Below, piece after piece: positions 1,221 through 49,892 of a stretch of 64,000 bases of DNA (the first letter of the stretch is position 1; each line of letters opens with the position of its first letter). Location: positions 1,440,001 through 1,504,000 of the forward strand of contig OZ243916.1 of NCBI GenBank assembly GCA_965213675.1, given 5' to 3'. Below the pieces are notes generated by a model. It was not told the origin of the DNA, did not search any database, and saw only the letters and a program-made list of their open reading frames with translations. Both the position numbers and the translations under genes were made by a program. This stretch comes from an uncultured Candidatus Binatia bacterium (GTDB lineage Bacteria; Desulfobacterota; Binatia; UBA9968; JAJDTQ01).

Positions 1221-1544
1221 CTACTCTTTCGCGGCAGGGTTGAGCAACGCGGCCAGCTCGCCCCGCTCGTGCAGTTCGTGAACGATGTCGCAGCCACCCA
1301 GGAACTGGCCGTCGACGTAGATCTGAGGGATGGTGGGCCACTTCGAGTACTGCTTCACGCCCTCCCGGACCTGCGGGTCGGAGAGTACGTCGAAGCTCTC
1401 GAACTCCGTGTTGTGGGCGCGCAGGATGTCCACCGTGTGGGCGGAGAAGCCGCACTGGGGAAAGTTCGGAGTGCCCTTCATGAACACCATCACCCGGTTG
1501 TTCTTCACTTGCTCTTCGATCCTGCCGAGAACGTCATCCGCCAT
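1221..1544 (-). CDS. grxD: Monothiol glutaredoxin, Grx4 family
   Basis: FMKGTPNFPQCGFS, WPTIPQ and GGCD motifs; GGAGGT RBS. Confidence 0.95.
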   Translation of the reverse strand: MADDVLGRIEEQVKNNRVMVFMKGTPNFPQCGFSAHTVDILRAHNTEFESFDVLSDPQVREGVKQYSKWPTIPQIYVDGQFLGGCDIVHELHERGELAALLNPAAKE

Positions 1545-1836
1545 GGTCATGTACCTCCGTTATGGGTGATCGTGTCGTGTCATGCAGATTCGTACAACCT
1601 GTTTCGACACGCAACACCCTTATGCTGCGTGTCACGAATACGTTTACCAACATGCTTGTCCTGTTCGCGCCGGCTGCGTTGCGTCGTCCCCCGGCTTGAC
1701 CCGGGGTAATCCACGCGTCTTGCGCGCTGGGGCGACCGGCACCCCGACCCACGGCCCTGCGGTCGCGGTGTCCCGGCACAGCCGCCGCAGGTTGCCCCTG
1801 CGGGTCATCGCGCCTTGCCGCCGGGTGAGCGGCGCG

Positions 1837-18668: not shown

Positions 18669-18857
18669 GTGTCCTCGCGTCAGCCGCGGCCGGTAACCGT
18701 GACAGACTCCTGCGATCGGGCGGGACGGCGTCTTGAGACTTCGCCACGGGGACGGCGAACGACCAGGTCAACCAATCCCTTGCAACCCCCGTGCGCCCTG
18801 AGCGTGGCTCAGCGACGTCGAAGGGCGCCATACAGCCCGACAAGGCCCTGCAACCTG

Positions 18858-30432: not shown

Positions 30433-30690
30433 CTAGGAGCCGAACTTCTCCCACTGCTCGGGGCTGAAGGTCTTCAACGACAGGGCGTGGATTCGTTCGT
30501 CGCCAAGCTCGTCCTTGAGGGCTTCATAGACCATCTTGTGCTGGTCGATGAGACCCTTGCCGGCAAACGAATCATGCACGATGACCACTTGGTAATGGTC
30601 GCCCCCGCCGGTCAGATCCTTGATCATGGGCACCGTGCAACCCGGGAAAACCCGGCCCAGTGTATCTTCTATTTCCTGTGGCTGGATCAT
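30433..30690 (-). CDS. bolA: BolA family protein
   Basis: GGGDHY...FAGKGLIDQHKMVY...IHALSLKT. Confidence 0.92.
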   Translation of the reverse strand: MIQPQEIEDTLGRVFPGCTVPMIKDLTGGGDHYQVVIVHDSFAGKGLIDQHKMVYEALKDELGDERIHALSLKTFSPEQWEKFGS

Positions 30691-30861: not shown

Positions 30862-30988
30862 CCTACCCAAGCCTCGACGCGCATGCCCGGTCAGCGTGGG
30901 ACCGTCCTGTGACAGCCATGGAGCCCCTGGACTTCGCGCGGAAAATTCACCCGTTCGCCCTGAGCGCGGCGCAGCGAAGTCGAGGGGG
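30862..30988. repeat. REP-like dispersed repeats (CCGTTCGCCCTGAGC...GTCGAAGGG type)
   Basis: Related segments at about 6583-6625, 18788-18828 and 35548-35600. Confidence 0.55.
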
Positions 30989-31002
30989 CGCCATTGGCCA
31001 TT

Positions 31003-31509
31003 CTATGCCTGCGGGTCGTAGTCGGCCCGGAGTTGCTGGGTCATGGCGCGCATGTCCGCCCGCAACTCCTCATTGGTGGGCCGTCCGACGTAATACCAGC
31101 CGTTGTAGATGCGGTGGACCGACAGGTCCGGCAGGAGCGAGAAGGCGTACGGGATCGCCAGCGTCCCGTGCCGCTTGTCCGTGGTATCGACGATGTCCAG
31201 CGCCTCGATGGCCTTGAACTCCTGATCGCTGAGAAACGGGAATGTCGCTCCGAGACCGTTGCGCAGCGCCCCGTTCACCTTGGGCGGATCGACGCTGACC
31301 ACGGCAATCCGGCAGTAGCTCACGGGAAGTTCTTCCTGAAGGACGACCAGGTGGCGCAACTGCACCACGCACTTCCCTCACCAGTAGCCCCGGTAGAACA
31401 CCACCACGAGCGGGAACTTGCCCTCGGTGATTTCCGACAGCTTCAGTTCCGTGCCCCTCTGATCCTCCAAGGCCAGATCCGGAAAATTCGCGCCGACTGT
31501 TTGGTTCAT
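31003..31509 (-). CDS. Selenocysteine-containing AhpC/TSA peroxiredoxin-like protein (UxxC), 168 aa
   Basis: ATG 31509 with GGAGG RBS: MNQTVGANFPDLALED...VVFYRGYW-UGA(31378-31380)-GKCVVQL..., in frame with ORF 31003-31368; downstream hairpin. Confidence 0.88.
31335..31380 (-). promoter_or_regulatory. Putative bacterial SECIS element
   Basis: UGAGGGA/UCCUUCA lower stem; GUGGUGCA-GU-UGCGCCAC upper stem with apical G about 18 nt after the UGA. Confidence 0.65.
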
Positions 31510-33262: not shown

Positions 33263-33368
33263 CACCTTATCCAGAGTGGTGGAGGGGCAGGCCCGTTGAA
33301 GCCACAGCAACCGTGTTCCCGAAGGGAACGCAGGTGCTAATTCCGGCCCGCAAGGGACAGATAAGGTG
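33263..33368 (+). ncRNA. SAM-I (S-box) riboswitch
   Basis: CACCTTATCCAGAG-GGTGGAGGG-GGCCC-TGAAGCC-CAGCAACC...GGTGCTAATTCC...GATAAGGTG, with P1 CACCTTATC/GATAAGGTG. Confidence 0.93.
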
Positions 33369-33373
33369 AGGAG

Positions 33374-33407
33374 AAACCTCTTCTCATCTTGGAAGAGGTT
33401 TTTTTTT
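33374..33407 (+). terminator. Intrinsic terminator (riboswitch expression platform)
   Basis: AACCTCTTC-loop-GAAGAGGTT followed by a T-run. Confidence 0.85.
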
Positions 33408-33496
33408 CGTCCAGGTGTTTCGTTCTGGCGTCGTTTTCGTTCTGGCGTCGTGTTGGGAGTGTCCCGAATCGGGAGCGCCCTTGGAGGCCGCGGTCG

Positions 33497-34279
33497 ATGC
33501 GTCTGAGTCCTGAGCAGGTTGAGCGCTACAGCCGGCAGATCATGATCCCCGACGTGGGCGGCAGCGGCCAGATCCGCCTGCGTCAGGCCAGCGTGCTCGT
33601 GGTGGGGGCGGGCGGTCTGGGATGTCCCGCCGCGTACTACCTGGCCGCGGCCGGCCTTGGGCGCCTGGGCATCGTCGACGGCGACGCCGTGGACCTGTCC
33701 AACCTGCAGCGGCAGATCCTTCACACCACGGCCGACCTGGACCGGCGCAAGGTGGAGTCGGCCCGGTCCCGGCTGCTGGCGCTCAACGCCGAGGTGGATG
33801 TGGAGGTCCACGCCACGCGCCTGACCGGCGAGAACGCGACGGAGCTGATGGCACCCTACGACTTCATCATCGACGGCAGCGACAACTTCGACACCAAGTT
33901 TCTCGTGAACGACGTGGCCGTGTCCCTGGGCAAGCCCTTCTCCCACGCGGGCATCGTCCGCCTCCAGGGACAGACCATGACCGTGGTGCCGCCGGAGAGC
34001 GCGTGTTACCGCTGCCTCTTCGAGGAGCCACCGGCGCCGGGGGAGGTGCCCGGCTGCCAGCAGGCGGGCATCCTGGGAGCGGTGGCCGGGACCATCGGCT
34101 CCATTCAGGCCACCGAGGCCGTCAAATACATTGTCGGCCTGGAGGAGCACCTGCTGGTGAACCGGATGCTAACCTACGACGCCAGGGCCATGGAAATTCG
34201 CAACGTACCCGTGGCGCCGAACCCGCGCTGCACGGCCTGCGGCGCGGGAGCGCCGGTTTCTCAAAGGAGTCACGCATGA
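33497..34279 (+). CDS. MoeB/ThiF-family adenylyltransferase (no rhodanese domain)
   Basis: RYSRQ, GAGGLG, SNLQRQ, DNF, CYRC, C-terminal CTAC. Confidence 0.92.
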   Translation: MRLSPEQVERYSRQIMIPDVGGSGQIRLRQASVLVVGAGGLGCPAAYYLAAAGLGRLGIVDGDAVDLSNLQRQILHTTADLDRRKVESARSRLLALNAEVDVEVHATRLTGENATELMAPYDFIIDGSDNFDTKFLVNDVAVSLGKPFSHAGIVRLQGQTMTVVPPESACYRCLFEEPPAPGEVPGCQQAGILGAVAGTIGSIQATEAVKYIVGLEEHLLVNRMLTYDARAMEIRNVPVAPNPRCTACGAGAPVSQRSHA

Positions 34280-35541: not shown

Positions 35542-35663
35542 GCGGACCCCGTCCGGCCCTCGACACGGATGCCCGCTCAGCGTGGGATCGTCGTGCGCGA
35601 GCCGCGGAAGCTGTTGAAATGGTCGGGTCCGGGTTCTATCCTGATCGAGAAGGAGGTTCTTTC

Positions 35664-35942
35664 ATGAGTGTTCGTGTACGCGTACCCACGCCGCTGAGAA
35701 AATTCACCCAGGGATCGGACGAAGTCGACGTCAACGGCGGCACCGTTCTGGCCATGCTGGAGGATCTGGAGCAGAAGCATCCCGGCATCAAGGAACGCAT
35801 CATGGACGAAGGCGGCAAGGTGCGCCGGTTCGTGAACGTCTATGTCAACGGCGACGACATCCGCTTTCTGCAGAACGTCGACACCGCGTTGAAGGACGGC
35901 GACAGCATCTCCATCGTCCCCGCCATCGCCGGCGGCGTTTGA
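35664..35942 (+). CDS. MoaD/CysO-like ubiquitin-fold sulfur carrier protein
   Basis: VPTPLR...RRFVNVYVNGDDIRF...PAIAGGV; AGGAGG RBS. Confidence 0.92.
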   Translation: MSVRVRVPTPLRKFTQGSDEVDVNGGTVLAMLEDLEQKHPGIKERIMDEGGKVRRFVNVYVNGDDIRFLQNVDTALKDGDSISIVPAIAGGV

Positions 35943-35969: not shown

Positions 35970-36965
35970 ATGCTCGCCGCGCTGAAACAGGACGGCGCTT
36001 CGCCGCCGCGCAAGCCACGCAAGGTCGACCGCATCGTCGAGCTTGTCGGCAACACGCCCTTGGTGCCGATCCGGCGGATCACCCGGGGACTGTCCCGGGG
36101 TGTGCGGGTGCTGGCCAAGCTGGAGGGCTTCAATCCGGGTGGGTCGGTCAAGGACCGCCCCGCCCTCAGGATGATCCGGGAAGCCATCGACACAGGGCAG
36201 CTCAGTCCCGGCCGCACCCTCATCGACTCCACTTCGGGCAACACCGGCATCGCCATCGCCATGATCGGCGCGGCGCTGGGCCATCCCGTACGGCTTGTGG
36301 TGCCCGCCAACGTGAGTGAGGAACGCAAGAACATCATTCGGTGGTTCGGCGCGGAGATCGTCTACAGCGATCCGCTGGAAGGATCCGACGGAGCCATCCG
36401 CCGCTGCCGCACCATCGTCGCGGAAGAGCCGGAACGGTACTTCAAGCCCGACCAGTACTTCAACCCGATGAACAGTCAGGCCCATTACGAGACCACCGGT
36501 CCCGAGATCCACGAACAGACCGAAGGGAGCGTCACCCACTTCATCGCCGGCATCGGCACCGGCGGCACCGTGATGGGGGTGGGACGTTTCCTGAAGGAGC
36601 GGGATTCGCGCATCCGCGTGATCGCGGCCGAGCCCGACTCGGCGCTGCACGGGCTCGAAGGGCTCAAGCACATGGCCAGCTCCATCGTTCCGGGGATCTA
36701 CCGGGAGGATGAGCTCGATCTCAAGATCCCGGTGTCCACCGAAGATGCCTACGACATGGTGTACCGGCTGAGCCAGGAGGAGGGGCTGCTGGTGGGGCAA
36801 TCCTCCGGCGCGGCCATGGTGGCGGCCATGGGTGTCGCCCGGCGGCTCACGCACGGCACCGTGGTGGTGGTGTTCCCCGACTTCGGTGCGCGTTACATGA
36901 CCACGAACCTCTGGACCACCTGGAAGGAAAGCCTTGACGTCGGCAACGTGGACTTTGCCATCTGA
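35970..36965 (+). CDS. cysM: Cysteine synthase (CysM-type)
   Basis: GNTPLV, NPGGSVKDR, TSGNTG, GTGGT, VGQSSG. Confidence 0.88.
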   Translation: MLAALKQDGASPPRKPRKVDRIVELVGNTPLVPIRRITRGLSRGVRVLAKLEGFNPGGSVKDRPALRMIREAIDTGQLSPGRTLIDSTSGNTGIAIAMIGAALGHPVRLVVPANVSEERKNIIRWFGAEIVYSDPLEGSDGAIRRCRTIVAEEPERYFKPDQYFNPMNSQAHYETTGPEIHEQTEGSVTHFIAGIGTGGTVMGVGRFLKERDSRIRVIAAEPDSALHGLEGLKHMASSIVPGIYREDELDLKIPVSTEDAYDMVYRLSQEEGLLVGQSSGAAMVAAMGVARRLTHGTVVVVFPDFGARYMTTNLWTTWKESLDVGNVDFAI

Positions 36966-39990: not shown

Positions 39991-40359
39991 ATGAACTGAC
40001 GGGTCGTTTTCCATGACGAGTTCGTGCCGGAGTTTCATGATCTCCACGTCAAGGTGCAGGATGAGGTGTACACGGTCGGCCGCTTGCTGGAGCAGTTCGG
40101 TCCGCAACTGGGTCGGCCGCAGGTGGATACGCTGAACGGGTCTCGGCACGCGAACATGAAGGAGATACGGTTCGGCGCGGCGGACGGGGAATGGCGGGTG
40201 GCCTTCGCCTTCGACCCCGCGCGTGAGGCCGTGCTTCTGGTGGCGGGCGACAAGTCGGGCGGCAGCGGGCGGCGGTTCTACCGTGCGCTCATCCGCAAAG
40301 CCGACGAGCGGTTCGACCGGCACCTTGCCCGCCTCGCCGATGAAAGGGGAACGCAATGA
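39991..40359 (+). pseudogene. RelE/HigB-like (Gp49/DUF891) toxin with a stop at codon 3
   Basis: MN*RVVFHDEF...GPQLGRPQVDTLNGSRHANMKEIR...AFDP...LLVAGDK. Confidence 0.8.
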
Positions 40360-40682
40360 CTGTGAGCCTTGATGAAATGATGGCGGAACTCGACCCCGAG
40401 CGACGGCGCAGGATTGAGGAACGGGCGGCCGAACTGATCGCCGAGGAAATGACGCTGCGCGAACTGCGCAAGGCCCGCGCGCTGACCCAGGCGAGCGTCG
40501 CGCGTGAGCTCGGCATCAGCCAGGACGCCATCTCCCGGCTGGAGAAGCGTAGCGACCTCCTGCTGTCCACGCTGCGCAGAACGGTGGAAGCAATGGGCGG
40601 CAGCCTGTCGCTGATCGCCAGATTCCCCGACCGCCCACCGGTCGAGCTTGCCGGCATCGCCGAACGCGACGCCCGCGATTAA
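40356..40682 (+). CDS. XRE/HigA-like HTH antitoxin
   Basis: LRELRKARALTQ...SRLEKRSDLLLSTLR; ATGA overlap with the toxin. Confidence 0.9.
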   Translation: MTVSLDEMMAELDPERRRRIEERAAELIAEEMTLRELRKARALTQASVARELGISQDAISRLEKRSDLLLSTLRRTVEAMGGSLSLIARFPDRPPVELAGIAERDARD

Positions 40683-40850: not shown

Positions 40851-41128
40851 ATGAGCACACGACGACGGTTCAGCGGAGACTTCAAGGCGAAGCGCTGGAG
40901 GCGCTGCGCGGAGACAAGACGATCCAGGAGCTCGCGGCGCGGCACAAGGTCCATCCGAACCAAGTGAGCACGTGGAAGCAGCGTGCGGTGGAGGGGATGA
41001 AGGAGGTGTTCTCGAAGGGAGCCGAGCGGGCACGAGGAGACCACGAGGGGGAGGTCCGGGACCTGCACGCGAAGATCGGAGAGCTGACGGTGGAGCGGGA
41101 TTTTTTGGCCAAGGGGCTCAAGTGGTGA
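40851..41128 (+). pseudogene. IS3 OrfA, frameshifted
   Basis: MSTRRRFSGDFKAK then a frameshift near 40892 to ALEALRGDKTIQELAARHKVHPNQVSTWK. Confidence 0.8.
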
Positions 41129-42048
41129 GCCGGGAGAAGCGCCGGGGGATGATCGAGCCCGGCCATCCCAAGCTCAGCTTGAGCCGTCAATGCCATTTGC
41201 TTCGAGTGAGCCGATCCTCTGTGTACCACAGGCCCAAGGGCGAGAGCGCGGAGAATCTGGCGTTGATGCGCCGGATCGACAAGCTGTTCCTGGAGTACCC
41301 CTTCTACGGCAGCCGCCAGATGGTCCGCCATCTGTGGCGGGAGCGAGTCCGAGTGGGTCGTCACCGGGTGCGGCGTCTGATGCGCCTGATGGGGCTCCAG
41401 GCCATCTATCAGGCGCCGCGCACCACCCAACCGCACCCCGAGCACCGGGTCTATCCCTATCTGCTCAAGGGGGTCGCCATCGAACGGCCCAATCACGCGT
41501 GGACCTCCGACATCACCTATATCCCTGTCCAGAGTGGCTTCCTGTACCTGGTGGCGGTCATGGACTGGGCCACCCGCCGGGTGCTCTCCTGGAGGCTGTC
41601 GAACACCCTCGATGCCCGCTTCTGTGTCGAGGCCCTCTCAGAGGCTCTGGAACGCTACGGCCCTCCCGAGATCTTCAACACGGACCAAGGCAGCCAGTTC
41701 ACCAGCCTGGAGTTCACCTCCGTCCTCAAAGACTCCGGCATTGCCATCTCCATGGACGGAAGGGGCCGGCGCATGGACAACATCTTCATCGAGCGCCTGT
41801 GGCGCTCCCTCAAGTACGAGGCTGTCTACCTGCACGAGCTGACCGACGGCTTCGCCGCCCAAAGGGCCATCGCCAACTGGCTCCACTTCTACAACACCCA
41901 AAGACCTCATTCCGCCCTCGCCGGCTCCACCCCGGCGGAGGCCTACGAACGAGGACTCCAGAGGCAGGCCGGACCTCACACCCCGCCCGCCCCTCTGACA
42001 GTTCCTTCGGAACACGAAGACCTGATAAACGGGACCTTGGCGGCATGA
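41125..42048 (+). CDS. IS3 OrfB DDE transposase (rve)
   Basis: WTSDITYI, NTDQGSQF, DNIFIERLWRSLKYE, YNTQRPHSAL. Confidence 0.9.
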   Translation: MSREKRRGMIEPGHPKLSLSRQCHLLRVSRSSVYHRPKGESAENLALMRRIDKLFLEYPFYGSRQMVRHLWRERVRVGRHRVRRLMRLMGLQAIYQAPRTTQPHPEHRVYPYLLKGVAIERPNHAWTSDITYIPVQSGFLYLVAVMDWATRRVLSWRLSNTLDARFCVEALSEALERYGPPEIFNTDQGSQFTSLEFTSVLKDSGIAISMDGRGRRMDNIFIERLWRSLKYEAVYLHELTDGFAAQRAIANWLHFYNTQRPHSALAGSTPAEAYERGLQRQAGPHTPPAPLTVPSEHEDLINGTLAA

Positions 42049-43337: not shown

Positions 43338-46244
43338 TCACGCATACGCGGCCACGGGCGCGCAGGTGCACACCAGATTACGGTCGCCCCAGGCGTTGTC
43401 CACCCTGCCCACCGGGACCCAGAACTTGCGCTGCCGCACCCACGCCAGCGGAAACGCCGCCTTGTCCCGCGAATACGAGTGCGGCCAGTCGTCCGAGAGC
43501 AGGTGCGGCGCACTGTGAGGCGCGTTCTTGAGCACGTTGTCCCGCGGGTCCGCGGCACCGGTCTCGATCTCGCGGATCTCCTCGCGGATGGCCAGCATGG
43601 CGTCGCAGAAGCGGTCCAGTTCCTCGCGCGACTCACTCTCGGTGGGTTCGATCATCAGCGTGCCCGCCACGGGCCAGGACATGGTGGGTGCGTGGAAGCC
43701 GTAGTCCATGAGCCGCTTGGCCACGTCTTCCACGGTGACATCGGCCGACGCCTTGAACGGACGCACGTCGACAATGCATTCGTGGGCCACCATATCGTTC
43801 TTGCCCCGGTAGAGGATCCGGTAACCCGAGGACAGCCGGTGCGCGATGTAGTTGGCGTTGAGCACCGCCACCTGGGTCGCGCGGGTCAGGCCGGCGGCGC
43901 CCATCATGGCGATGTACGCCCACGATATCGGCAGGATGCCGGCGCTGCCCCAGGGAGCCGACGACACCGCGCTGATGCCCCCGGCCGGGCCGCACTCGGG
44001 CACGGTCCCGTGGCCCGGCAGATACCCCTTGAGGTGCTCGGCCACGGCCAGCGGGCCGACCCCCGGCCCGCCGCCGCCGTGGGGGATGCAGAAGGTCTTG
44101 TGCAGGTTCAGGTGGCAGACGTCCGGGCCAATGCGCCCCGGTTGGCACAGCCCCACCAGTGCGTTCAGGTTGGCGCCGTCCAGGTAGACCTGACCGCCGT
44201 GCTCGTGAACGATGCGGCAGATCCGGGTGATGCCCTCCTCGAATACGCCGTGGGTGGACGGGTAGGTGACCATCAGCGCGCCGAGTTCGCCGCTGACGCG
44301 CTCGGCCTTGGCGCGCAGGTCGTCCAGGTCGATGTTACCGTCGTCGTCGCAGTCCACCACCACCACGCGCATACCCGCCAGCACCGCGCTGGCGGGATTG
44401 GTGCCGTGGGCGGAACTGGGAATGAGGCAGACCTCGCGCCGTCCCTGACCCATGGCGGCATGATGTTGCCGGATCACCAGCAAGCCCGAGTACTCCCCCT
44501 GGGAGCCGGCGTTGGGCTGCACCGACACTGCCGCGAAACCCGTGATGGCGGCCAGCCATTCCTCCAGTTGGGCGATGAGGCGCCGGTAGCCCCGGGTCTG
44601 GTCCGCGGGCGCAAACGGGTGCATGCGCGCGAACTCGGGCCAGGTCACGGGAATCATCTCGGTGGTGGCGTTGAGCTTCATGGTGCATGATCCCAGCGGA
44701 ATCATCGACTGCACCAGGCTCAGGTCCCTGGCCTGGAGCTCCGCCATGTAGCGCAGCATCTGCGTCTCGGAGTGGTGGCGGTTGAATACCGCCGCTTCCA
44801 GATACCCGCTTTCGCGCACACAACCGCGGGGCAGGTGCGACCGAGCGTCCCGCGCCACCGCCGCCGTCAGGTCTTCGTCCGCCGCGGGCGCGCCGAACAC
44901 ATCCAGCAACGCGCCCAGATCCTCCACCGTGGTGGTCTCGTCCAGGGACACGTGCAACTGCCCTTCGGACGGACGTCCGAGATTGATGCCGCGCTCGGCC
45001 GCCGTGAGCTGGATTGCGCGGGCACGTTCCGGCCCGGCTTCAATGCGCAGCGTGTCGAAGAAATGATCGGCGGCCAGGGAAAAGCCGGCGGCGCGCAGCC
45101 GCTGCGCCAGGAAGGACGCGTGGCGATGCACCCGCTCGGCGATGTTCCTGAGACCGGCGGGGCCGTGATAGACGGCGAACATGGACGCCATGACCGCCAG
45201 CAGCACCTGTGCGGTGCAGATATTGCTGGTGGCCTTCTCGCGCCGGATGTGCTGTTCCCGGGTCTGCAGCGCCAGCCGCAGGGCGCGCGCGCCGTGGGCG
45301 TCCCGGGACACCCCCACCAAGCGTCCGGGCATCATGCGCCGGTAACGCTCGCGGGTGGCGAGGAAACCGGCATGGGGACCGCCGAAACCCATGGGCACGC
45401 CGAAACGCTGGGCGCTGCCCACCACCACGTCCGCGCCCATCTCCCCCGGCGGCTTGAGCAGGCACAGGCTCAGGAGATCGGTGGCGACGATTCCCATCTG
45501 CCCGCCCTCGCGGCAACGCCGCAGGAAGGCATCGAGATCGGGGATGGCGCCGCTGGCCGCGGGATACTGGATGAAGGCGGCGAAGGCATCCGCCGGCGGC
45601 GCGCCGGCGCCGGTCACCAACTCCACGCCTATGGGACGCGCGCGCGTACCCAACACCTCCAGGGTCTGGGGAAAGACGTCCTCGCAGACGAAGAGCTTCC
45701 TGCGCGGAGCGAGGCTGCGCGCGCGGCCCTGGTTGCCGGCGTGCAACGCCAGGAACACGGCCTCGGCGGCCGCCGTTCCCTCGTCAAGCATGGAGGCGTT
45801 GGCGATGTCCATGGCCGTCAGGTCGGTGACCAGGGTCTGGAAGTTCAGCAGCGCCTCCAGGCGCCCCTGGGAGATTTCCGGCTGGTAGGGTGTGTAGGCG
45901 GTGTACCAGCCCGGATTCTCGAGAATGTTCCGGAGGATGACAGCGGGTGTGTGGCAGTCGTAGTAGCCCATCCCGAGACAGGAACGGACAGGCCGGTTTT
46001 CCGCGGCGATGGCGCGCGCCTCGCGCACAAGCTGTTCCTCGGTCAGGGGCTCGGGCAGGTCCAACGTGTCCCGGAACCGGATGTCGTCGGGCACCGCCCG
46101 CTGCACCAGTTGTTCGAGACCATCCAGGCCCAGGACGGCGAGCATCTCCCCCACTTCCGCCGCGCCGGGGCCGATGTGCCGTGACGAAAACAGATCCCGA
46201 AACGAACTTCTGTGGTCTGTCGGCTCCACGGCGCGATCCTCCAT
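43338..46244 (-). CDS. gcvP: Glycine dehydrogenase (decarboxylating), P protein
   Basis: [40 protein letters not shown]. Confidence 0.97.
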
Positions 46245-46260
46245 GCTCCAGCGCTCTGCG

Positions 46261-46668
46261 TCAGGCGCCGTCGTCGTCCGGTTGCCCCTCGCAGTACTCC
46301 TGGTACTCCTCGTGGGTCATGAGATCGTCGAGCTCACCCACGTCCGACATGGTCACCTTGACGATCCACCCCTCGCCGTACGGATCCTCGTTGACCAGCT
46401 CCGGCGTGTCCGCCAGCGCGTCGTTGACCTCCACCACGGCGCCGCTCACCGGCGCGTAGAGATCCGACACCGCCTTCACGGATTCCACCGCGCCGAACGG
46501 ATCGTCCTTGCTGAGGTTCTCCCCCATTGCCGGCGTCTCCACGTACACCACCTCTCCCAGTTCGTTCTGGGCGAAATCGGATATGCCGATGAGGGCGCCG
46601 TCCGTGTCCTCCACCAGCACCCACTCGTGCTCCCTCGAATACCGCAGCCCCTTGGGGTACTCCATCAT
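46261..46668 (-). CDS. gcvH: Glycine cleavage system H protein
   Basis: [20 protein letters not shown] lipoyl motif. Confidence 0.96.
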
Positions 46669-46694
46669 TTCCTCCTTCGCGGCCAGCCGATGCG

Positions 46695-47783
46695 CTACCG
46701 GACGAACGGCACGCGGACGACGCGGGCGCGCGCCCGCCTGCGGCGGATTTCCACTTCCACCTCGGTGTCCAGCGCCGCCGCCTCCGGCTCCACGTAACCC
46801 AGCGCGATGGCCTTGCCCAGGGTCGGCGACAGCGTGCCGCTGGTGATGCGTCCCACCTCGCGCCCTTCGCGCCAGATCGGATACCCTTGACGGGCAATGC
46901 CCGCCTCTTCCATCATCAACCCGGTCAGGCGGCGCGTGAGCGGCTCCTTCCGCGCCAACGCCGCGGAGCCGATGAACGGCCCCTTGTCGAGCTTGGTGAC
47001 CCAGCCGAGCCGGGCTTCCGGCGGCGTCGTGGTCTCGTCCAGCTCATGCCCGTAGAGCGAGTAGCCCTTTTCCAGACGGAGGGTGTCGCGCGCGCCCAGA
47101 CCGGCGGGCTCCACGTCGCCGGACGCCGTGAGAACGTCCCACAGCGCGGCGCCGTCCGCCGCGGCGCAGTACAGCTCGAAACCGTCCTCCCCGGTGTACC
47201 CGGTGCGCGAAATGGTGCAGTGGATTCCGTGCACCGCGCCATTCACGAAATGGAACGGCTTGAGCGCCGGCAGCTCCGCCGCGGTCAACGGTTGCAGCAC
47301 GGCCGCGGCCACGGGCCCCTGAAGCGCCAGCAGCGCATAGGCGTCGCTCACGTCCTCCACGGTCACGTCGTCGTCCGCGTGATCCACGAGCCAATGGAAA
47401 TCAACGTCCGCGCGGGCGGCGTTGACGCACAGGAGATACCGCTCCTCTTCCAGCCGGAAGAGCACCAGGTCGTCGATCACCCCCGCCCGATCATTCAGCA
47501 ACAGGGTGTACTGCGCCTGCAACGGCCGCAGGCGCGCGACGTCGTTGGTGGTGACCCGCTGGCAGAAACGCGAAGCCCCTGCGCCGGCAACCTCGAACTC
47601 GCCCATATGGCTGACATCGAAAAGCCCGGCCCGGGAGCGCACGGCCGCGTGCTCGGCCTGAATGCCGCGGTACTGGACCGGCATCTCCCATCCCGCGAAC
47701 GGCACCATGCGCGCGCCCAGCGCCTTGTGCCGCCCGTGCAGCGGTGTTTTTCGGAGAACCTTGCCTTGCGCTTCGTCCGCCAT
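46695..47783 (-). CDS. gcvT: Glycine cleavage system T protein (aminomethyltransferase)
   Basis: FAGWEMP, FDVSHMG, TGYTGEDGFE, GLGARDTLRLE. Confidence 0.96.
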   Translation of the reverse strand: MADEAQGKVLRKTPLHGRHKALGARMVPFAGWEMPVQYRGIQAEHAAVRSRAGLFDVSHMGEFEVAGAGASRFCQRVTTNDVARLRPLQAQYTLLLNDRAGVIDDLVLFRLEEERYLLCVNAARADVDFHWLVDHADDDVTVEDVSDAYALLALQGPVAAAVLQPLTAAELPALKPFHFVNGAVHGIHCTISRTGYTGEDGFELYCAAADGAALWDVLTASGDVEPAGLGARDTLRLEKGYSLYGHELDETTTPPEARLGWVTKLDKGPFIGSAALARKEPLTRRLTGLMMEEAGIARQGYPIWREGREVGRITSGTLSPTLGKAIALGYVEPEAAALDTEVEVEIRRRRARARVVRVPFVR

Positions 47784-47885
47784 GGTCGAGAACCCTGGGA
47801 CGCCGTGGGGCTTGTGACGACGCTTCCGCGAGACGGCCGCCACGCCCTGCCGCCTTCATGAACCTGCGCGCCCGCCGGTGCGCGG

Positions 47886-48737
47886 TCACGCCTGCGCGGC
47901 GGAACGCTGCGCCGACAACAGGGTGTTGGACAACAGCATGCAGATGGTCATGGGGCCGACGCCGCCGGGCACCGGCGAGATCCACGACGCGCGCTCCCGC
48001 GCGGCTTCGAACTCCACGTCGCCCGCGAGCTTGCCGGTGGGCAGCCGGTTGATGCCCACGTCGATGACCACCGCGCCGGGCTTGATCCACTCGCCGCGGA
48101 TGGCGTGGGTCTTGCCCACCGCGGCCACCACCACGTCCGCCCGGCTCACCTCTCCCGCGAGATCCGCGGTGCGCGAATGACACAGCGTGACCGTGGCGTG
48201 CCGTTCCAGCAGCATCAGCGCCACGGGCTTGCCCACGATGTGGCTGCGCCCCACCACCACCGCGTTCCGGCCCTTGAGCGCGCAACCCACGGAGTCCAGC
48301 ATGCGCAGGATGCCCAGCGGCGTGCACGGCCTGAAACCCTCGCCGCCGGAGAGCAGCAGCCCCTGATTCACCGGGTGAAATCCGTCCACGTCCTTGGCCG
48401 GCGACACGGCCTCGAGGATGCGCGCGCCGGCGATGTGGTCCGGCAGCGGCAGTTGCACGAGGATGCCGTGGATGGCGCGATCCTCATTGAGACGGGCGAT
48501 CAGCTCCAGCAGCTCGCGCTCCGGCGCCGACGCCGGCAACAGATGCTCCACCGAGCGGATGCCCACCTCCGCGCACGCCTTCTCCTTGTTGCGCACGTAC
48601 ACCCGCGACGCCGGGTCGTCTCCTACCAGCACCACGCCCAGACCGGGCACCACGCCGTGGTCGTTCCTGAGCTGCTGCGCGCCCGCCCGCACTTCGCCGC
48701 GCACCTGCTGCGCCACCGCCTTGCCGTCGATGATCAT
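47886..48737 (-). CDS. folD: Methylenetetrahydrofolate dehydrogenase/cyclohydrolase
   Basis: [32 protein letters not shown]. Confidence 0.96.
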
Positions 48738-48956
48738 CGTGCTGTTGCCTCGATCAGGTTGAGAAAAGCGCCTCACAAAACCGGTAACACGCCCTTGAAA
48801 CGAGGTCAATAAATTGACGTGAAACCGTAGCCGGCGCTTCTTGACACTCCTGGGGTGCTCACGTACCAATTCAATCATGATCACCGGCGTCCCCAAGGAA
48901 TCGAGAATCGAAGAGTGCCGCACGTCATGGCCCCTTGCGGTGGAGGTGTGCTGCGC

Positions 48957-49892
48957 ATGAGACTCGTGACCCGGCCCGATTTCGACGGCATCGTCTGCGG
49001 CTCGCTCATCACCGCGGTGGAAGACATCGAGGCCTTCCTCTTCGTCGAGCCCAAGTTCATGCAGGACGGCGCCGTGGATATACGCGCCGGCGACGTCATC
49101 GCCAACCTCCCCTACCACCCGGCGTGCGCCCTGTGGTTCGACCATCACTTCACCAACGGGGCCGCGGGCTTTGACCGGCCCGTGGTTCCGGGCCGCGGCG
49201 CTTTCCGGCTCGCGCCAAGCGCCGCGCGGGTGGTGTTCGAATACTACACCGAGGTGCCGAGCGCGTCGGCGGCGCGCTACAGCCGGGGCCTCGACCTGAT
49301 GCGCACCAGCCGGTTCACGGCGCTGCTCGAGGACACCGACAAGATCGACGGAGGCTACCTCACGCGGGCCGACGTGCTGCACCCCTCAGGATACGTGCTC
49401 ATCTCCATGACCCTCTACGGCAAGGACGGCGCCGAGGAGCCCTACTGGCGCAGCCTGATCGAGATGATCCGCGACCGCACCCTGAAAGAGGTGCTCCGCG
49501 ATCCCGAGGTCCAGCGGCGCTGCGCGCGGGTCCTGGGCCTTCAGGAACAGCTCCGGCGGCAACTTCTGGAGCACGCGCAACTCCGCGGCAACGTCATCTA
49601 TCTCGACCTGCGCGCCGCCGAGGATCTCACCGACGCCAACCGTTTTCTGCTCTACACGCTGTTTCCGGAGGGGAACATCTCCATGAAGGTCTCGCGCGAT
49701 ACGCAGCGGGCCGACACCACGGCCATTTCGGTGGGCTACAACATCTTCAACACCACATCCAAGGTCAATGTCGGCGACCTGCTCAGCCACTACGGCGGCG
49801 GCGGCCATCGCGTCGTAGGGTCGTGCCGGGTGCCGGACACGGACGCGGAACGCGCCGTGAACGCCATCCTGCGGCACATCACCGAGGCCTGA
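48957..49892 (+). CDS. DHH-family phosphoesterase (exopolyphosphatase/nanoRNase-like)
   Basis: [19 protein letters not shown]. Confidence 0.85.

Follow-up and report, generated by a model that had tools for sequence, protein, structure and literature searches.

We analyzed a window of 64,000 nucleotides from an uncultured Candidatus Binatia bacterium (GenBank assembly GCA_965213675.1, contig OZ243916.1, positions 1,440,001 to 1,504,000) and found on its minus strand, at positions 31003 to 31509 of the window, a gene for a peroxiredoxin-like protein in which an in-frame TGA at codon 44 is very probably decoded as selenocysteine (Sec). The TGA-interrupted frame is a real gene that standard annotation has mis-called. 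Sec recoding had been proposed by a sequence-only reading of this DNA. It is supported by conservation of the TGA across genomes, by the pairing of Sec with Cys in homologues, by coding on both sides of the codon, and by a hairpin that resembles a selenocysteine insertion sequence (SECIS).

Read directly from the sequence, the gene is a single frame of 168 codons on the minus strand, from an ATG at 31509-31507 to a TAG at 31005-31003. A Shine-Dalgarno sequence, AAGGAGG (31522-31516 on the same strand), lies upstream of the ATG with a 6-nt spacer. The sole in-frame interruption is the TGA at 31380-31378 (positions 31378 to 31380), which is codon 44 and falls in the motif FYRGYW-U-GK-C, where U is Sec. 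The putative resolving partner in U-x-x-C, Cys47, is encoded by the TGC at 31369 to 31371. The ribosome-binding site, the ATG, the sole TGA, and its motif had been described in the sequence-only reading and are confirmed, as is its statement that the mechanical list of open reading frames (ORFs) reports only the C-terminal 121 amino acids (aa), a shortened minus-strand ORF at 31003 to 31368 that starts at a GTG. In a Pfam search of the full translation with Sec entered as Cys, residues 5-123 matched AhpC-TSA with 58.3 bits, above the cut-off of 26, and Redoxin with 46.8 bits. Therefore, the domain spans the TGA. The G+C content of the window is 66.5%. TGA is its commonest ordinary stop and ends 24 of the 46 stop-containing ORFs that were selected by G+C content at third codon positions (GC3). 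Therefore, the genetic code is standard.

This family is widespread among uncultured bacteria of soil and groundwater, and the databases hold it largely in shortened form. A word-indexed protein search returned at least 500 relatives. Among the 120 best of 500, 93 were no longer than 135 aa, covered 64-72% of the query, and started just after the position of the TGA, and the 27 longer ones were 46-54% identical to the query. This suggested that the same stop occurs across many genomes. Fragments of 113-127 aa without the active site are named "redoxin domain-containing protein" or "peroxiredoxin" in GenBank and IMG, and their starts differ (MQLR, MVQLR, VQLR, MRHY, and others). The full-length frame corrects what is a systematic annotation error, in which the family is held in databases as fragments without the active site.

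To follow the TGA through other genomes, we scanned 185,579 species-representative genomes. The scan confirmed 295 relatives, of which the best-scoring 80 (56-94% identity) were kept and the other 215 were not. Counts of loci given below refer to these 80, or to 81 genes when that of the window is added. In every one of the 80, the codon that aligns with the TGA of the window was also TGA, within the motif FYRG[YFH]W-U-[GPA]-K-C. All 81 genes had U-[GPA]-K-C and one shared frame across the TGA. The sequence-only reading had set against itself the case that close relatives all have Cys and that the TGA is private to this genome, and that case is false. The closest kept relative (94% identity) is from a metagenome-assembled genome (MAG) labeled Binatia. 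Labels of the MAGs with kept loci are Binatia, Deltaproteobacteria/Syntrophobacterales, Methylomirabilota/Rokubacteria, Entotheonellaceae, Verrucomicrobiia/Udaeobacter, Acidiferrales, Planctomycetota, and Eisenbacteria.

Both sides of the TGA have the signature of coding sequence. Upstream of it, the entropy at codon positions 1, 2, and 3 was 0.87, 0.73, and 1.32, respectively. When the window gene was compared with its relatives L001 to L022, codon differences upstream of the TGA were synonymous in 254 cases and nonsynonymous in 205, and those downstream were synonymous in 755 and nonsynonymous in 343. The variation upstream is codon periodic with a synonymous excess, and therefore the N-terminal 43 codons are translated in this frame. 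The alignment with Cys homologues that had been proposed as a check was also run. In the U44 column, 34 of 35 full-length Cys-type homologues had Cys, and 1 had Asp.

In bacteria, hairpins just 3' of a Sec codon are bound by a complex of SelB, GTP, and Sec-tRNA(Sec). We folded the UGA with the following 42 nt and obtained a SECIS-like structure (31337 to 31380, minus strand) with a minimum free energy (MFE) of -20.2 kcal/mol. In the MFE fold, a lower stem of 7 bp pairs UGAGGGA (31380-31374) with UCCUUCA (31343-31337), so that the UGA lies inside it. An upper hairpin (31351 to 31368, minus strand) starts 16 nt after the UGA and has a 7-bp stem, GUGGUGC/GCGCCAC, and an apical loop, AGUU (31361-31358), that contains a G. 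The UGA within a 7-bp stem and the apical G had both been described beforehand and are seen in this fold. However, the upper stem of 8 bp that had accompanied them was not borne out.

A hairpin occurs at the same place in nearly all 81 sequences, with AGUU, AGUUGC/AGUUAC, or AGGUCA(G) as the loop and a stem of 5-8 bp across clades. Constraints given for bacterial SECIS elements are a loop of 3-9 nt, an upper stem of 4-16 bp, a G in the first two loop positions, and a spacing of 16-37 nt (PMC13188914, Fig. 2 legend), with an energy of -7.5 kcal/mol or lower (PMC13188914). This published geometry was found in 81 of 81 genes, with a spacing of 16 nt in 80 and of 18 nt in 1. The MFE of the UGA plus 42 nt was between -8.4 and -20.2 kcal/mol in all 81, the window being at the lower end, which is within the energy limit. 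The contiguous upper stem reached -7.5 kcal/mol by itself in 47 of 81 genes but at only 650 of 10,950 control codons (5.9%) in the same genes. In 96-100% of the 81 genes, ten-codon windows that began 0 to +4 codons from the UGA were more stable than shuffles of their synonymous codons, by 4.4-4.75 kcal/mol, and over the rest of the gene (codons -40 to +109) the mean difference from the shuffles was -1.83 to +1.37. The excess of folding is near the UGA only. Therefore, RNA-level selection is limited to the expected position of a bacterial SECIS. By pair count over the 81 sequences, the upper helix was 77.7% paired, and 3 of its 7 pairs had changed on both sides. The hairpin and its conservation support Sec recoding through a bacterial SECIS, and it is the comparison with relatives, not the fold of the window alone, that is decisive here.

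The structure resembles the E. coli fdhF-type SECIS in that, in the window, the UGA lies within the lower stem and in that an intragenic hairpin immediately downstream of the UGA has a small apical loop with G followed by U or G (the general model is that outlined in PMC13188914). It differs in its spacing, which is at the model's lower limit of 16 nt, and in its stem, which has no more than 5-8 bp and changes register from clade to clade.

Several observations weigh against a Sec codon read through this hairpin. The window fold alone was no better than chance (z = -1.04; 31 of 200 shuffles equaled it), and 34 of 81 upper stems alone were weaker than -7.5 kcal/mol. The lower helix was 58% paired and is kept only in close Binatia relatives, and a control slid by +2 had a higher covariation score (0.133 versus 0.101). 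No Rfam SECIS model matched. At the gathering threshold, the whole window yielded a SAM riboswitch and nothing else, and at an E value of up to 10 the segment 30900-31620 gave three chance hits. RNAalifold returned only 2 consensus pairs (-0.25 kcal/mol) from the 81-sequence alignment. This is because the stem register shifts between clades, and RNAalifold was replaced by per-sequence folds with synonymous-shuffle controls. The hairpin also overlaps the conserved codons C-x-V-Q-L-R, and therefore its conservation is partly protein driven. In addition, the Sec machinery did not come into view. An ARAGORN scan that covered the window and loci L001 to L060 turned up no tRNA-Sec, a Pfam scan of 47 window ORFs found no selA, selB, or selD, and tblastn with E. 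coli K-12 SelA, SelB, and SelD had no match in the window plus the 80 loci (1.27 Mb). Because these sequences amount to less than 1% of each genome, the failure to find sel genes is uninformative rather than negative.

We built an AlphaFold2 model of the protein on 116 sequences. Its predicted local distance difference test score (pLDDT) was 96.6 over all 168 residues, and its predicted template modeling score (pTM) was 0.92. In the model, the N-terminal 43 residues form strands 13-15, 21-23, and 34-38, and U44 directly precedes helix 45-64. The N terminus has no hydrophobic leader and starts directly with the first strand. Therefore, we read the protein as cytoplasmic. The nearest folds in a Foldseek search were Bcp4 (3hjp; TM 0.84/0.89), PrxQ, AhpE, and ResA (TM 0.83-0.87 normalized to ResA). 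In profile alignments with BcpB (5epf) and PrxQ (2cx3), the peroxiredoxin Pro fell on R40, the Thr on U44, the peroxidatic Cys on C47, and the catalytic Arg on P120. The canonical peroxiredoxin motif PxxxTxxC was not found in these alignments, and neither was the canonical catalytic Arg, at the position of which is the nearly invariant P120. W43-U44-x-x-C47 aligned instead with the W-C-x-x-C of ResA, and P120 aligned with the ResA cis-Pro loop, lPttF. The protein is therefore a peroxiredoxin/BCP-like scaffold that carries a thioredoxin/ResA-type active site. The description AhpC/TSA-like in the sequence-only reading holds as far as the Pfam family is concerned, which scored above its cut-off, but the Pro, Thr, and Arg signature of peroxiredoxins is absent.

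That reading had also stated that homologues have RGxWCPxC. The nearest Cys homologues do not bear this out, because their motif is RGxxC-P-[KR]-[DE], with no CxxC. A tally of motifs over the retrieved full-length proteins gave CxxD in 58 and CxxE in 28, and the sole CxxC was the query. Among the 35 Cys rows of the alignment, 23 had C..D, 11 had C..E, and 1 had D..E. We made a quick-method tree of 81 Sec forms and 35 Cys forms after removal of the active-site columns. The Sec forms fell in two clades, of 64 and 17 members, and Sec needed 1 change, on a branch with a support of 50. The tree is compatible with one Cys/Sec switch, although this support is too low to settle a single origin. Ancestors of the Sec lineage may have been monothiol C-P-K-[D/E] proteins that underwent a change of Cys to Sec together with one of Asp/Glu to a resolving Cys. 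Taken jointly with the idea of a BolA/Grx4 partner (see below), this remains speculative. Two database proteins, P0039 (RGVWWPKC) and P0241 (RGFWWPKE), have Trp in the Sec column of their protein sequences. This may be TGA that was translated as Trp by the source gene caller. If so, P0241 would be a Sec form with Glu in place of the resolving Cys.

There are other ways to account for the TGA. It could be a private nonsense codon, a sequencing error, or the mark of a pseudogene, breaking a Cys-type redoxin gene, as might be thought from the fact that gene callers take it as a stop and that databases hold just the C-terminal piece of about 120 aa. However, each of the 80 kept loci, which are from different species, has the TGA at this very codon, purifying selection acts on both halves in a single frame, the AlphaFold2 model needs the three strands of the N-terminal 43 residues, and identities of 56-94% exclude the records being copies of one assembly. 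We give this explanation practically no credence. It is also scarcely believable that the UGA terminates translation and that the product is a 121-aa protein from the GTG at 31368, perhaps with a separate 43-aa N-terminal peptide. In the window, that GTG lies 10 nt past the TGA with the purine-rich GAGGGAAG ahead of it, and databases list such short ORFs. However, CCN-AAR replaces the purine-rich stretch in many relatives, both parts share a frame in 81 of 81 genes, and the database starts vary as expected from arbitrary choices of gene callers. Furthermore, the short form is without the active-site W-U-x-x-C and three beta-strands. Slightly less remote, but still highly improbable, is that the UGA is read as Trp, Cys, or Gly, through reassignment or through near-cognate read-through stimulated by the hairpin. 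The absence of Sec machinery from the window and flanks examined would fit with this, as would the W in the Sec column of P0039 and P0241 at the protein level. However, TGA has not been reassigned, because it ends 24 of the 46 GC3-selected window ORFs, and the codon sits exactly at the redox Cys of the homologues. The bacterial SECIS geometry, the conserved G(U/G) loop, and the fixed spacing also argue for Sec, and for one of the host phyla, Methylomirabilota, MAGs with up to 63 selenoprotein genes are mentioned in PMC13188914.

A different question, compatible with Sec, is whether the protein is a true thiol or selenol peroxidase (a peroxiredoxin) that detoxifies peroxides. AhpC-TSA is its best Pfam family, the nearest structures and profiles are of the BCP/PrxQ type (3hjp; 5epf, 6.4e-14; 2cx3, 2.4e-13), and C47 aligns with the peroxidatic Cys. 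Sec-based peroxidases do exist, according to the table of PMC13188914. On the other hand, R40, U44, and P120 stand where the signature would have Pro, Thr, and the catalytic Arg, Asp or Glu stands at the position of the peroxidatic Cys in 34 of the 35 Cys-form homologues, and the W-C-x-x-C plus cis-Pro arrangement matches that of ResA. We therefore regard a peroxidase as unlikely, though not remote, and lean toward disulfide-oxidoreductase-type chemistry rather than that of a canonical peroxidase.

Taking UGA-44 as a Sec codon, we propose the following mechanism, and a cytoplasmic selenoprotein of 168 residues that works in this way is, as a whole, probable with good confidence. UGA-44 would be read as Sec at the signal of the in-gene mRNA hairpin 16 nt downstream, which SelB-GTP-Sec-tRNA(Sec) would bind. 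W43-U44-G-K-C47 is predicted to lie at the N terminus of helix 45-64, facing the conserved Pro120. The U44 selenolate would attack an oxidized substrate. Candidates are peroxides, disulfides, and thiols that have been glutathionylated or sulfenylated. C47 would then resolve the adduct to give an intramolecular U44-C47 selenenylsulfide, and a thiol system would reduce this again. Synteny suggests that the substrate or partner would probably be found within the BolA/Grx4 iron-sulfur and redox-homeostasis system.

Peroxiredoxin (Prx)-like UxxC selenoproteins have been cataloged since the first prokaryotic selenoproteome surveys. PMC1794560 places such a family in Geobacter, Syntrophus, and Desulfotalea genomes, and PMC2398784, a Global Ocean Sampling (GOS) survey, counts 225 "Prx-like 1" sequences. 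The table in PMC13188914 has a "Prx-like thiol:disulfide oxidoreductase" (PF00578, UxxC/UxxU; exemplar WP_010940744.1) and a "Redoxin family protein" (PF08534, UxxC), and this review also refers to a Methylomirabilota MAG in which 63 selenoprotein genes are predicted. Our gene shares with the first of these classes, the function of which is itself a prediction in the table, the PF00578 domain (58.3 bits; gathering score, 26), a SECIS that follows the UGA directly, and Sec as the first residue of UxxC (U44-G-K-C47 in the window; U-[GPA]-K-C in all 81 genes). By the description of this known class, it is a member or a subfamily of it. It stands apart through two clade signatures (FYRGYW-U-x-K-C and YNGWWYVGRPT), through its hosts in Binatia and Methylomirabilota, through the bolA/grx4 synteny, and through Cys relatives in which C-P-[KR]-[DE] takes the place of CxxC.

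Three other families invite comparison. ResA and TlpA are membrane-anchored, extracytoplasmic reductases of cytochrome maturation. B. subtilis ResA (1st9, 2h1b) was the best PDB sequence match (E = 9.7e-5), and its W-C-x-x-C and cis-Pro are found here with Sec replacing the first Cys. However, our protein differs in having no hydrophobic leader, an extra C-terminal helix (146-160), and Sec, and its scores were under the cut-offs of the NCBIfam models, at 19.8 bits of the required 170 for ResA and 17.1 bits of the required 230 for TlpA. The BCP/PrxQ and AhpE peroxiredoxins (3hjp, 5epf, 2cx3, 1xxu) are the closest in overall fold and profile, but their catalytic Pro, Thr, and Arg are absent here, and the nucleophile would be three residues N-terminal of the Prx peroxidatic Cys position. 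The SelL-related model NF040769 was the best NCBIfam match for the Sec form and for 4 of 5 Cys forms tested. SelL-related proteins are described in PMC2398784 as Prx-like redox proteins related to a UxxU selenoprotein. However, the scores were 24.5-28.8 bits against a cut-off of 120, with the Sec form at 28.8, so the protein is not a member, and no NCBIfam model reached its cut-off for the Sec form.

Our literature search found nothing on selenocysteine in Binatia, and the Binatota genome paper (PMC8262859) has no "seleno" term. Titles and the openings of abstracts revealed no link between BolA and a bacterial Prx-like selenoprotein. In the material searched, the clade, its occurrence in Binatia, the contrast between U-x-K-C and C-P-K-[D/E], and the bolA/grx4 synteny appear to be undescribed, although a selenoproteome study of groundwater MAGs may already list the gene.

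The next gene downstream is bolA (30433 to 30690, minus strand; Pfam BolA, 64.9 bits), after a gap of 312 nt in which a window scan found 0 terminator-like sites and no promoter-like site. Of the 80 loci, 60 have bolA on the same strand no more than 4 kb downstream, and 57 have it no more than 2.5 kb downstream. It is the most conserved neighbor, followed by Amdase (41 loci), glutaredoxin (Grx; 38), and SDR paralogues (36). In those 38 loci, a CGFS monothiol Grx4 is encoded downstream of bolA on the same strand, directly after it in most, and locus L037 has the order SDR, selenoprotein, bolA, grx. In the window, a CGFS monothiol glutaredoxin of the Grx4 family is unlinked (1224-1550, minus strand; TIGR00365, 139.4 bits; cut-off, 117.1), 29 kb away. 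Cotranscription of the gene with bolA is probable, and in many other lineages the transcript probably takes in the CGFS Grx4 gene as well.

A functional link of the selenoprotein to BolA/Grx4 may be suspected from this arrangement, but tentatively. The function and the BolA link both rest on homology and gene order, and 20 of the 80 loci have neither bolA nor grx nearby. These are L029, L035, L042, and all 17 members of the Methylomirabilota-type clade, and several of them have short flanks. It is a more doubtful proposition still that the selenoprotein is a dedicated redox partner of BolA and monothiol Grx4, in a three-gene module of Sec-redoxin, bolA, and grx4.

In L001 to L003, the three closest relatives, about 1.3 kb separates the selenoprotein gene from bolA, and in L004 to L022 the distance is 50-520 nt. 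The larger gap contains inserted material. In the window, the gap contains a dispersed repeat of about 45 nt, just 3' of the selenoprotein stop (about 30948-30994, minus strand). The repeat recurs in the window at 18788-18831 and 35558-35603, and L002, L004, L014, and L022 also have copies of it, which occur in both orientations. An intergenic element similar to repetitive extragenic palindromes (REP-like) is one possible identity. Its fold was unconvincing (z = +2.57).

Elsewhere in the window, a SAM-I (S-adenosylmethionine) riboswitch (RF00162; 80.1 bits; 33264-33367, plus strand) directly precedes a ThiF-family gene (33389-34279, plus strand), with a gene for a pyridoxal phosphate-dependent (PALP) enzyme further downstream (35970-36965, plus strand). 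Together these look like a SAM-controlled operon of the sulfur-carrier, Cys/Met type. About 21 or 22 related loci likewise have ThiF and PALP genes close to the selenoprotein gene. A GC3-based scan for other TGAs with a coding signal on both sides picked out only those at 35940 and 49890 (plus strand). Both were rejected as Sec codons. They look like junctions of adjacent genes in the same frame, with the next starts 27 nt and 18 nt downstream, respectively. A Gp49/HigB-like gene paired with a helix-turn-helix (HigA-like) gene (40024-40679, plus strand) is followed by an rve-family integrase/transposase gene (40972-42045, plus strand), which looks like a small mobile or toxin-antitoxin island. 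A glycine-cleavage cluster of gcvT, gcvH, and gcvP lies within 43341-49382 (minus strand) beside a FolD-like ORF, the called start of which adds about 215 residues before the tetrahydrofolate (THF) dehydrogenase/cyclohydrolase domains. That extension could be a mis-called start or a fusion.

For selenoprotein specialists, this is a well-supported but ordinary kind of discovery, and by it Binatia-type genomes would be shown to use selenocysteine. The U-x-K-C of the Sec forms and the C-P-K-[D/E] of the Cys forms form a clean system in which to study the reasons for replacing Cys with Sec. If the Sec lineage did arise from monothiol ancestors, it would be a natural case of a resolving thiol recruited along with Sec. 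The most interesting lead is the bolA/grx4 synteny, which can be tested and bears on the still unclear biochemical role of BolA-Grx pairs. If the selenoprotein is indeed their dedicated partner, selenium chemistry would be coupled to the assembly, repair, or sensing of iron-sulfur clusters in Binatia and related uncultured lineages.

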